A DNA stretch of 56,522 nt from Escherichia phage PDP46, in sequence record PQ783785; one strand, written 5' to 3'. A program made the position numbers and the translations under genes. Below the pieces are notes generated by a model that saw only the letters and a program-made list of their open reading frames with translations, was not told the origin of the DNA and made no database searches. How positions within the stretch are numbered: the first letter of the stretch is position 1; each line of letters opens with the position of its first letter. Shown here one piece after another: positions 13,323 to 15,240 of this stretch.

Positions 13323-14282
13323 ATGGCTACTAAAGACCCATACCCGGATATTTCAGACAAGTATGACGCTCGCATTCGCGAAGCACTTGACGTCGTGTGG
13401 GAAAACGTGCGTCGTAGTGAGTCGTTAGCTAACCTGGAATACATCATTGAAACTCAGGGTATTGCCGGGTTACTCCCCATTCTTGAAACACTACCTGATG
13501 AACTTAGTGCACAGTTGCGCCCGGTTATTGAAGATGCGATCGCCGAATCAGGTCGTGTAGTCGTTCAGGTTCTACCGAAAGCGGCTGTGACAGGTACGGT
13601 TGTGTTTAGTCTGGTCACCCCACAGGTCAGCACATATATCAACAACTATGTCGGACAACTGATCCGTGAAGTTAGTGATGAAACAGTCAAAGCTGTTCAG
13701 ATTGCAGTTAATCAGGGTGTTGTAACCGGACGAAATCCGCGTCAGATAGCCCGTGATTTTCGATCATCAATAGGGTTAACCACACGGCAGGAAATGACGG
13801 TTCAACGTCTGCGGTCAGCACTGGAAAAAGGTGAAGCAGGTTATGTAAACAGTCTGACAACAGTTACAGACAGTGCAAAGAATGCTGTAAGTGCCGGGAA
13901 ACTATCACAGGCGAAGATTGACCAGATAATCGAACAGACACGCTTGCGTTACGTAAAACAGCGTACAGAGACAATAGCGCGTACTGAATCACTTCGTGCT
14001 GTATCAGTTGGTCAGGACCAGGCTATTCGTCAGGGTCAGGTTACGGGGTCGATCAGTAATGAATTATTAAAACGTTGGTTGTACAGGAAGGATGGTAGGA
14101 CACGTGACGCGCATATTTCCACGGGTGAAACGAATGGCTGGATACCAATGAACAGACCGTTTTCAACGCCGTTAGGACCACTTATGTTTCCTCGTGATCC
14201 TAACGGTAGCGCAGCGAACGTGATTAATTGTCGTTGCCGGGTTGCTTATTCTCTCCCTCAAGATATAAATGTTATCCCGTGA
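13323..14282 (+). CDS. Head morphogenesis protein (SPP1 gp7 / Mu F-like)
   Basis: 319 aa; C-terminal NCRCRV motif typical of this family. Confidence 0.7.
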   Translation: MATKDPYPDISDKYDARIREALDVVWENVRRSESLANLEYIIETQGIAGLLPILETLPDELSAQLRPVIEDAIAESGRVVVQVLPKAAVTGTVVFSLVTPQVSTYINNYVGQLIREVSDETVKAVQIAVNQGVVTGRNPRQIARDFRSSIGLTTRQEMTVQRLRSALEKGEAGYVNSLTTVTDSAKNAVSAGKLSQAKIDQIIEQTRLRYVKQRTETIARTESLRAVSVGQDQAIRQGQVTGSISNELLKRWLYRKDGRTRDAHISTGETNGWIPMNRPFSTPLGPLMFPRDPNGSAANVINCRCRVAYSLPQDINVIP

Positions 14283-15195
14283 TTATACGTATTAGAGTGG
14301 TTATATTTGGATTCCATTTTAACCACTCAGTACAACCATCGAACCCAGTCAACTCTGCTGACTCAAAATGAGAATGAAAATCTTTTTCAAGTGAACGAAT
14401 GGTTTTACCATCAGAATTATATATTTCAATAACATTGAATTCGAAAGGTGTTCTTTTCTTCAATATTTTTATTCTATTTTCAACATTGTTGCTAATACCT
14501 ATTTTAACATAACTACCACATAGAGATCTTAAAACATATAAGCTAGCTTTGTTTTTGATTTTAAAACCTGTTGTAGCGCAACCTGCACAACGTCTGCCAG
14601 TATGTAATAATGTTGTAGGCGTTGTTATAAATTCACCATGTTTTTGACATTTAATTTTTATCTTACTGTATTGATTAACATACCCATTGACCCAACCCAA
14701 AAATTCATAATTTAATGACAAACATTTTTCATTTATCTCTTTTTCTCTTATATGTAACGGTGTCTTTTTATTTTCAAAATAACATTTCTTACAGAAACTT
14801 TTATTTATAGTAATGTTGTTGCCGGAAGATACCCACTGACCATGTTTAGTACATTCTATTAATGCTTTTGTGCGAACACCATGATAATTTTCAATCCATT
14901 TTACAAATTTATAACCTCGCGAGTTACAAATATTAGTGATACGTTTTTCATATTCTTTTTGATCTATACTATTTTTTAGTGCTATGTTCTCATTACTACA
15001 TTTCTTACAAAAATTTCTACCGTTCACTATCAAATCAGAGGATGTTTCCCACTCACCATGTTTTTGACAATGCATTATTAGTCTACTTGATGCATTCTTG
15101 TAACCATTTAAGAATCTAACAAAATGATAAATAGTACCTTTGCAAATTTCTGAAATCTCTGAAAGTCTTTCATGTTCTGTTTTTCGTTTAGTCAA
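14272..15195 (-). CDS. Homing-endonuclease-like protein (3 Zn-ribbon-like repeats plus GIY-YIG/T5orf172-like C-terminus)
   Basis: 307 aa; three HGEW..C..KC modules; C-terminal SLYVLRS..YVKIGIS; strongly AT-rich; TTG start 7 nt after AGGAGG. Confidence 0.5.
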   Translation of the reverse strand: MTKRKTEHERLSEISEICKGTIYHFVRFLNGYKNASSRLIMHCQKHGEWETSSDLIVNGRNFCKKCSNENIALKNSIDQKEYEKRITNICNSRGYKFVKWIENYHGVRTKALIECTKHGQWVSSGNNITINKSFCKKCYFENKKTPLHIREKEINEKCLSLNYEFLGWVNGYVNQYSKIKIKCQKHGEFITTPTTLLHTGRRCAGCATTGFKIKNKASLYVLRSLCGSYVKIGISNNVENRIKILKKRTPFEFNVIEIYNSDGKTIRSLEKDFHSHFESAELTGFDGCTEWLKWNPNITTLIRIITG

Positions 15196-15200
15196 AATAA

Positions 15201-15240
15201 AACCTCCTGTTGTTTAACTCAATATTAGCAACAGGAGGTT
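15201..15240 (-). terminator. 12-bp perfect hairpin (AACCTCCTGTTG / CAACAGGAGGTT) that sequesters the SD of the endonuclease-like gene
   Basis: On the minus-strand transcript the stem is followed by UUAUUUUG and the TTG start. Confidence 0.6.

Follow-up and report, generated by a model that had tools for sequence, protein, structure and literature searches.

What kind of gene lies across the very end of a phage head gene, runs against it on the opposite strand and has its ribosome-binding site (RBS) locked in the stem of a hairpin? This question is raised by an open reading frame (ORF) of 307 amino acids (aa) on the minus strand of Escherichia phage PDP46 (sequence record PQ783785), a 9NA/Sasha-like siphovirus genome (Nonanavirus/Sashavirus) that we analysed as one stretch of 56,522 nucleotides (nt), hereafter the window. 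Our answer, to which we assign a probability of about 0.8, is a free-standing homing endonuclease gene that forms a self-contained cassette of 1010 base pairs (bp) at the 3' end of the head gene and whose expression appears to be restrained. That we are dealing with a mobile endonuclease cassette of the T5orf172/CapR type is very probable, and a homing endonuclease that is active, or was so until recently, is the best reading of the sequences compared here. Such a homing-endonuclease interpretation is supported by the filled, empty and scar alleles of a single junction, by a recoded putative target, by the low divergence of the cassette relative to its flanks, and by purifying selection on the protein. 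The positions of the individual features are collected in Table 1.

The protein is predicted to consist of a repeated DNA-binding part and a C-terminal nuclease domain. In Pfam searches, CapR (PF21817; E = 1.1e-22, 80.4 bits against a cut-off of 24.2) matched three stretches of the 307-aa protein, and residues 225-297 were recognized by both MUG113 (E = 4.4e-11, 43.6 bits, cut-off 22.3) and T5orf172 (E = 2.7e-5, 25.0 bits, cut-off 20). The original prediction, which had described a homing-endonuclease-like product with a C-terminal resemblance to GIY-YIG/T5orf172 nucleases, is thus borne out by two profiles above their curated cut-offs. Besides, the protein matched PHROG 681 ('endonuclease'; E = 1.4e-65), and precomputed DUF723 and CapR matches on homologues agree with the CapR assignment. 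The CapR-type modules span residues ~8-74, 79-146 and 147-212. Hence, the three tandem Cys/His modules seen in the original prediction are real, with a period of ~70 aa rather than the ~35 residues given there. Each module carries a C-x2-H-G ... C-x2-C signature, and when two pairs ~20-26 residues apart are taken as the criterion, the putative zinc ligands are C43/H46/C63/C66, C115/H118/C135/C138 and C183/H186/C203/C206. Across 19 homologues, down to 27% identity, the Cys columns of the modules are invariant or at least 90% conserved, and the second zinc ligand, a His in the window protein, is replaced in homologues by Cys or other residues or kept as His. In the same set of homologues, residues Y220, K231, G233, I234, R241, E270, E290 and W291 of the nuclease domain are invariant; by analogy with the literature (Barth, Dunham and Seed 2023, PMC10448857), they may serve catalytic roles. 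An AlphaFold 2 model of the protein (mean predicted local distance difference test score of 87) shows the same succession of elements in every module, a helix and three strands followed by a short helix and a CxxC knuckle, and ends in a C-terminal alpha/beta domain. The Foldseek matches of highest probability were GIY-YIG proteins, namely 1zg2 (probability 0.96) and Slx1 (probability 0.91), with non-significant E-values of 0.085-0.3.

The ratio of nonsynonymous to synonymous substitution rates (dN/dS), calculated against the orthologues of Klebsiella phage KP13-27 and the metagenomic contig L019, is 0.11 for the whole gene, 0.12 for its DNA-binding part and 0.09 for its nuclease part. The protein is therefore under purifying selection, and the window does not harbour a decaying relic. 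The locus had further been called AT-rich on inspection, and calculation agrees: the ORF has a GC content of 29.8%, compared to 43.7% for the whole window, and is the lowest-GC stretch of 924 nt therein (0.14% of all such stretches are as low, each of them overlapping the ORF). No second copy or paralogue of the gene was found within the window. We propose that it be annotated as a putative T5orf172-family homing endonuclease, rather than as a hypothetical protein or an 'HNH endonuclease'. As an observation in its own right, the last ~40 residues of the nuclease domain (~265-303 in the window protein, IRSLEKDFHSHFESAGLTGFDGCTEWLKWNPNITTLIR) are near-identical in proteins P0005-P0013 despite an overall identity of 41-45%. 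Endonuclease genes that are diverged elsewhere may thus have exchanged this segment recently, a sign of domain shuffling.

How this gene is placed becomes apparent from comparison with phages that lack it. The closest named relatives of the window, ~95% identical, are the Escherichia phages KarinMuster_Bas82 (Bas82), AVIO78A and PJ16, as well as Sashavirus 536P12 and BDX09P1. In Bas82, the head morphogenesis gene, whose product matches Phage_Mu_F (E = 4.9e-10) and is Mu-F/SPP1-gp7-like, converges directly on a 76-aa gene that in the window lies to the right of the cassette. BLAST aligned window positions 13001-14242 to 2267-3508 of the Bas82 locus (L001), and 15253-15502 to 3526-3775 thereof; alignments of the junction from nine named phages and 11 loci of the IMG/VR database agree with these boundaries. 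Empty sites all read ...CGGGT ACAGTACAGTTTGCCGG AAGATATnGGTTCnnTGGGTTAA, a sequence whose conservation extends to 9NA, Sasha and Carvaje, although identity in the vicinity drops to 77-86% in these phages. Filled sites, on the other hand, all read ...CGGGT TGCTTATTCTCTCCCTC AAGATAT AAATGTTATCCCGTGA... at their left end, and the right end of the cassette runs ...GGTCAAGC and then into the original AAGATATTGGTTCGTTGGGTTAA.

The left end of the cassette is thereby part of the head gene. Its recoded patch is codon-for-codon homologous to the empty site and almost entirely synonymous, changing VQYSLPE to VAYSLPQ, and it is common to all three cassette lineages, with third-position differences only. 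Downstream of it, the new tail and stop codon of the head gene are read from the strand opposite to the final codons of the endonuclease gene. The two genes are convergent, as originally described, and overlap by 11 nt (14272-14282) instead of the 10 bp then counted. The original 3' end of the head gene survives as a fossil on the far side of the cassette, which holds the right copy of AAGATAT (15253-15259), so that this heptamer is found at both cassette ends in all three lineages. Such a layout is consistent with a target reaching from the patch across AAGATAT...GGTTC; the insertion would have split it, and recoding would have immunized its left half. The recoded patch is accordingly presumed to confer immunity by altering the left half-target, and the fossil would be the untouched right half of this putative site. 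Within the head gene, ~40 bp upstream of the recoded patch, we also observed a 13-bp inverted repeat of 92% complementarity (14169-14206, plus strand; CCGTTAGGACCAC / GTGATCCTAACGG, 12 nt apart).

A 7-bp direct repeat that flanks the insert in all three lineages could alternatively be a target-site duplication, left behind by a small transposon-like element, or the locus could hold an ordinary accessory gene that arrived through illegitimate recombination; a GC content 14 points below that of the host genome would be in keeping with either. We give this explanation a very slim chance, since the cassette contains neither a transposase nor terminal inverted repeats, its sole ORF encodes a predicted DNA-binding nuclease of a family known from homing-endonuclease contexts, and the same site is filled in three diverged lineages, with no site other than the head-gene junction found for the cassette. 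Given that the left AAGATAT lies within the homologous recoded stretch, the repeat is better explained as a duplicated target that was kept as the original 3' end, and the transposon reading of these repeats was rejected.

The distribution of the cassette argues for a mobile gene. It is absent from Bas82, AVIO78A, PJ16, 536P12, BDX09P1, 9NA, Sasha and Carvaje as well as from seven IMG/VR contigs (L030-L036). At the identical junction, it is present in the window, in the metagenomic contig L010, which encodes an identical protein, and in L038 from IMG/VR; in KP13-27, in eight metagenomic contigs of the KP13-27 type (L011-L018) and in L037, an IMG/VR contig of the Klebsiella type; and in L019, which represents a third lineage with 79% aa identity. 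These three cassette lineages are ~80% identical to one another and share the exact junction. KP13-27, the only nucleotide-level homologue in the phage collection (81%), has the same 11-nt overlap, and in its close relative Carvaje the site is empty. Finally, two metagenomic contigs (L028 and L029) carry decayed 'scar' alleles. Both retain the left end of the cassette, that is, the recoded end of the head gene plus the last 26 endonuclease codons, and share a deletion by which the first 281 endonuclease codons were lost along with the fossil, the promoter-like site and the hairpin. Taken together, nuclease similarity, a base composition below the genome average and absence of the gene from most relatives at this junction were all found, in line with the original prediction. 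Of a different kind is a second paralogue with 44% identity, located elsewhere in the genome in L041 and L042 (IMG/VR 3300045988_029198 and 3300045988_038444); these genomes are the closest filled relative and one of the scar-allele relatives.

Presence of the gene cuts across the phylogeny of the phage backbone, since the head genes of the window and Bas82 (94.6% identity) and those of KP13-27 and Carvaje (94.0%) form pairs, with ~79% identity across the two groups. Moreover, the cassette is far more similar between carriers than the adjacent head gene. Between the window and L010, there are 6 differences in 1010 cassette positions and 47 in 920 positions of the head-gene flank (P = 4e-10; 99.4% and 94.9% identity, respectively), and the comparison with L038 gave 11/1010 and 40/920 (P = 7e-6; 98.9% and 95.7%). 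The same holds true for KP13-27 and L011, with 7/1011 differences in the cassette and 49/914 in the flank (P = 3e-10; ~99.3% and ~94.6%). Both main haplotypes of the head-gene block 14018-14138 occur together with filled, empty and scar alleles, and flank haplotypes are unlinked to the state of the cassette up to position 14238. As the haplotypes are shared across allele types, the exchange breakpoints must fall within ~5 bp of the cassette edge; in a search for a co-conversion tract, no flank polymorphism linked to cassette state was found within 400 bp on the left. In two lineages, the flanks have diverged 5-8 times as much as the cassette, which sits on different flank haplotypes; this points to recent lateral movement.

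Some observations pull in the opposite direction. Between lineages, the nucleotide identity of the gene (81-83%) is about that of the backbone (78-83%), so the association with this site must be old. Part of the distribution is accounted for by vertical inheritance and subsequent losses, and may thus reflect loss rather than gain. Besides, according to PMC10448857, homing by T5orf172 endonucleases, including the ICP1 members, had yet to be verified by experiment, and the Foldseek backing for a GIY-YIG fold is not significant (E = 0.085). On a rival view, the gene encodes a domesticated nuclease or DNA-binding regulator that has resided in this phage group for a long time; inherited vertically and lost repeatedly, it would no longer home, and it might serve in the exclusion of competing phages or satellites, like ICP1 Odn, or in CapR-like repression of the head gene. 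The match between gene and backbone divergence and the strong purifying selection (dN/dS of 0.11) speak for this view; CapR domains can be pure repressors (Netter et al. 2021, PMC8096241), T5orf172 nucleases have been co-opted (PMC8263062, PMC10448857), and a cassette that supplies the C-terminus of the head protein favours its own retention. Against it stand the 5-8-fold lower divergence of the cassette on different flank haplotypes in two lineages, the fact that most relatives and the scar alleles live without the gene, and the recoding of the patch codon by codon, which is what immunity of the target predicts. PADLOC returned nothing but a partial, weak match of the nuclease domain (E = 4e-6) to the candidate system PDC-S57, and the reading as a defence system was rejected. 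Overall, we consider domestication improbable and favour a homing endonuclease.

The second part of the question concerns the hairpin upstream of the gene. Its arms are formed by a perfect 12-bp inverted repeat (15201-15212 / 15229-15240), one of two such repeats of at least 12 bp within 40 nt in the 56.5 kb, where ~0.14 would be expected under uniform composition. A consensus Shine-Dalgarno (SD) sequence, AGGAGG (15208-15203), lies in the 3' arm 7 nt before the TTG start codon and is followed by the U-run, precisely as had been read from the letters; the first in-frame ATG does not come before codon 41. The stem contains 6 G-C pairs among its 12 bp, the 16-nt loop includes an inner helix of 4 bp, and 8 of the 9 nt in the U-run are U. 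Alone, the hairpin folds with -18.5 kcal/mol, and in a context of 106 nt its z-score is -3.36, with none of 200 shuffles folding as well. In modelled read-through transcripts of 111 and 181 nt, the probability of the SD being unpaired is 0.0, so that the proposed burial of the RBS in a hairpin holds as far as structure is concerned. The arms are invariant between the window and L010, extend over 11 bp in KP13-27 and L011, and contain one C:A mismatch in L019; both arms are kept across three lineages that are ~82% identical overall, while the loop differs at 4-5 of its 16 positions. Since the hairpin and the promoter-like site described below are absent from empty sites and deleted in the scars, they belong to the cassette, and a hairpin plus U-run inside the cassette should serve the element rather than the neighbouring operon. 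No Rfam match was obtained in 13900-15700, and the terminator scan, limited to loops of at most 8 nt, did not list the hairpin because its loop exceeds this limit. The other perfect 12-bp inverted repeat of the window (TGCGAGTAAAAC / GTTTTACTCGCA, 26 nt apart; 42116-42165) lies inside a 331-aa minus-strand ORF and adjoins the highest-GC stretch (41501-42000, 56% GC).

Overlapping the hairpin is a promoter-like site. Its spacer coincides with the 5' arm and its -10 element falls within the loop, and since transcription is predicted to start at ~15215, such a transcript would lack the 5' arm; in this short RNA, we found only an alternative fold of -5.4 kcal/mol. The site is kept as TTGACT-17-TAATAT in L019 and as TTGACT-17-TAGTAT in KP13-27. 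We consider it rather likely that the hairpin limits expression of the endonuclease gene, by transcription termination or translational masking. Use of the internal promoter is a tentative proposal, with the odds leaning somewhat against it.

A similar arrangement exists elsewhere in the window. Among its 53 SD-bearing ORFs of at least 100 aa, the two most occluded SDs are those of the endonuclease gene and of the head morphogenesis gene. The latter is preceded by a canonical terminator hairpin (13294-13317) and a T-run, with GAGG (13312-13315) in the 3' arm, 7 nt before the ATG, and an extended -10 element (TGaTATAAT, 13284-13292) lies just upstream, from which transcription would start inside the 5' arm. 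This module (13284-13325, plus strand) is kept in Bas82, AVIO78A, PJ16, 9NA, Sasha, Carvaje and KP13-27; its loops vary, and 9NA shows a single C-to-T change that keeps a G.U pair. As the head gene uses an SD-in-terminator hairpin too, the device is not specific to the endonuclease gene. It is not a trait of the endonuclease family either. We inspected eight annotated homologues and 27 non-redundant ones from IMG/VR, with the 53 window ORFs serving as controls, and rejected a family-wide SD-sequestering hairpin, since distant homologues show none consistently. The mean probability of the SD region being unpaired was 0.42 in homologues vs 0.43 in controls, and values of at most 0.23 occurred in 5 of 25 non-orthologous homologues vs 4 of 52 controls, which is not a significant difference; start-codon calls in the metagenomic loci of this comparison are uncertain. 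With regard to genomic context, five of eight distant homologues (RCIP0063, L021; Vibrio phage 1.007.O, L024; 64795_sal3, L025; 9NA, L026; Bas80, L027) are antisense to both neighbours and lie inside structural-gene modules (neck/adaptor, tape measure, tail). Several of them overlap the 3' end of a neighbour, as do the window gene and T4 segD.

A simpler explanation would be that the hairpin is a plain Rho-independent terminator, or insulator, of the upstream minus-strand operon, with the SD in its 3' arm by mere proximity and the endonuclease gene expressed by read-through alone. This explanation draws on the head gene, whose like arrangement looks as if it were the house style of the genome, and on two facts that also count against our view of a dedicated control device: the promoter-like site matches consensus at 9 of 12 positions, and the 13 sites of this quality in the region equal the 13.0 expected from shuffles, i.e. 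chance level; and SD occlusion is not enriched in distant family members. Two further points count against our view: the 16-nt loop is outside the usual range of intrinsic terminators, and no compensatory changes in the stem were seen in the three lineages, although with arms this invariant covariation is uninformative either way. Against the plain terminator, the junction lacks one where the site is empty, which means that the hairpin arrived with the cassette and that the operon does not need it. Termination plus masking with no promoter of its own would leave a strongly selected gene with no route of expression. In addition, the -35 element, the 17-nt spacing and the -10 element are kept in three lineages in which neighbouring loop positions change, and the conserved extended -10 of the head gene is likewise positioned for a start inside the 5' arm. 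We thus regard a plain terminator as unlikely and retain the proposal of a hairpin that restrains the endonuclease gene. The earlier comparison with free-standing homing endonuclease genes kept at low expression finds a documented counterpart in phage T4 (Edgell, Gibb and Belfort 2010, PMC2988022), with the qualification that the hairpin is not family-wide and that the head gene shares the device.

If these pieces are put together, the element might work as follows. The three CapR zinc-finger modules would read an extended DNA site that spans the last head-gene codons of cassette-less relatives, about GGGTACAGTACAGTTTGCCGG/AAGATATNGGTTC, and the C-terminal domain of the T5orf172/GIY-YIG type would cut nearby. 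In a co-infection, the break would be repaired from the cassette-bearing genome, whereby the cassette is copied in. The carrier itself would be immune because the insertion splits the site and because 11 of 17 positions in its left half have been recoded. The head protein is almost unchanged by this recoding, and the cassette supplies a four-codon tail and a stop, both overlapping its own 3' end. Transcripts entering from the upstream minus-strand genes would fold the hairpin that buries AGGAGG and would either terminate or stay untranslated, the U-run ending at a weak TTG start; a modest, sigma-70-like promoter could give rise to a short transcript without the 5' arm, in which the SD is free. 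One may go further and envisage a fully self-sufficient unit that repairs the essential gene it invades by means of the recoded 3' end and the new stop codon, brings a switch of terminator, promoter and SD like that of the head gene, and represses itself by binding the right half-target 2 bp upstream of the -35 element, in analogy to I-TevI. We regard this extended scheme as distinctly unlikely. The retained right half-site beside the -35 element is a speculative operator, and a search for an I-TevI-like operator by eye, in which the 19 nt at the inner side of the right cassette end, inward from the right AAGATAT, were compared with the left half-target, gave 7 of 19 matches; this is about chance, and the candidate was rejected as operator evidence.

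Table 1. Positions of the features discussed for the head-gene junction of the window.
Feature	Positions	Strand	Remarks
Head morphogenesis gene	13323-14282	+	Convergent with the endonuclease gene
Mobile cassette, 1010 bp	14243-15252		Replaces the 17 bp ACAGTACAGTTTGCCGG of empty sites
Recoded patch, head-gene codons 307-313	14243-14259	+	11 of 17 positions differ from the empty site
Left copy of the 7-bp direct repeat AAGATAT	14260-14266	+	Encodes D-I in the functional head gene; also found in L019 and KP13-27
New 3' end of the head gene, NVIP*	14268-14282	+	Supplied by the cassette; replaces GSLG*; kept in scars L028 and L029
Endonuclease ORF	14272-15195	-	307 aa; TTG start (15195-15193); dN/dS 0.11 against KP13-27 and L019
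MUG113/T5orf172 nuclease domain (GIY-YIG clan)	14296-14559	-	~Residues 213-300; from profiles and conserved residues
Scar deletion, 921 bp	14350-15270		Shared by L028 and L029
Three tandem CapR-type zinc-finger DNA-binding modules (predicted)	14560-15174	-	From PF21817, Cys columns and the AlphaFold 2 model
U-run UUUUAUUUU	15194-15202	-	Begins within the stem and continues directly behind it; its last letters belong to the TTG start codon
RNA hairpin	15201-15240	-	5' arm 15240-15229; 16-nt loop 15228-15213; 3' arm 15212-15201
Promoter-like site TTGACC-17 nt-TAATAT	15222-15250	-	-35 15250-15245; -10 15227-15222; TG at extended -10
Fossil of the original head-gene 3' end, AAGATATTGGTTCGTTGGGTTAA (DIGSLG*)	15253-15275	+	Layout as in the live end of empty sites

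To the right of the 76-aa gene, there is a second region of insertion or deletion (window positions 15503-15924). It contains an ORF of 111 aa (15556-15891) that has no Pfam match. PJ16 shares the region with 99.6% identity, whereas Bas82, AVIO78A and L010 lack it.

The endonuclease class as such is abundant in phages and has already been described, and what the present locus offers is a good annotation and an experimental handle rather than a new kind of system; in the literature, we found nothing on this element in 9NA/Sasha-like phages. If the extended scheme of a self-sufficient unit holds in full, homing of a T5orf172/CapR endonuclease could for the first time be demonstrated in a natural system open to experiment, since culturable partners without the cassette exist (Bas82, AVIO78A, PJ16) and are available from culture collections. 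The allelic series of an intact target, a filled and recoded site and a deleted scar, all in phages of E. coli, would render the target, the cut site, the length of co-conversion and the cost or benefit of the element measurable. It would also show how an element can invade the extreme end of an essential head gene without harm, and suggest that hairpin control as known from T4 recurs in an unrelated class of endonucleases.

Among known systems, the closest are the T5orf172 endonuclease genes with repeated CapR/DUF723 zinc fingers that are found beside essential genes, are variably present and are often degenerate (PMC10448857). Like gp174, gp165, gp121, gp53 and gp130 of ICP1 and their homologues in many phages, the window protein has N-terminal tandem CapR fingers and a C-terminal T5orf172/MUG113 domain, and in both cases the gene adjoins an essential structural gene, varies between close relatives and has degenerate alleles. 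The host group differs, in that the present cassette resides in 9NA/Sasha-like siphoviruses of E. coli and Klebsiella, and the present locus permits the empty site to be defined exactly, together with a recoded patch, a scar allele and a cassette-borne, putatively regulatory hairpin; in the text of PMC10448857, the words 'promoter', 'terminator', 'orientation' and 'antisense' do not occur.

As for expression, RBS-sequestering hairpins combined with an internal promoter have been described for I-TevI, I-TevII, I-TevIII and segB of T4 and for mobE of Aeh1 (PMC2988022). There as here, long read-through transcripts fold into a stable hairpin in which a consensus SD, ~7-8 nt from the start codon, is hidden, and RNA made from an internal promoter (a candidate one in our case) would not include the 5' part of this hairpin. 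The promoters of T4 are late or middle ones, whereas the candidate predicted in the cassette is sigma-70-like. In contrast to the T4 and Aeh1 hairpins, that of the cassette is followed by a U-run, so that termination might occur as well as masking, and the start codon is TTG. Besides, the DNA-binding parts of those enzymes are unrelated to that of the cassette protein. T4 segD is another gene of the GIY-YIG clan opposed to neighbouring late structural genes, being antisense between capsid genes 23 and 24 and, like the cassette gene with its putative terminator, flanked by terminators (PMC2988022). No specific promoter was found for segD, whereas the cassette gene has a conserved promoter-like site and overlaps the stop codon of the structural gene.

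A paralogue occurs within the same phage group. Gp46 of Salmonella phage 9NA, annotated as 'endonuclease', shares 33% identity over 91% of the protein and is also encoded antisense between two structural genes, namely those of the tail terminator and the major tail protein (9NA 21318-22906), where it overlaps the 3' end of the tail terminator gene by 29 nt. In the window, the corresponding junction is empty (~23641-23679; ~39 bp compared to ~976 bp), and the hairpin upstream of gp46, unlike that of the cassette, excludes the SD. Lastly, the CapR zinc finger itself was described in PLE CapR, a satellite repressor of the ICP1 capsid operon (PMC8096241). The ligand pattern is CxxC...CxC there and C-x2-H ... 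C-x2-C in the window protein. Both proteins share a homologous zinc-finger DNA-binding domain and a phage head-gene region as their target, putatively so for the window protein. PLE CapR has no nuclease domain, however, whereas that of the window protein is intact and under selection.

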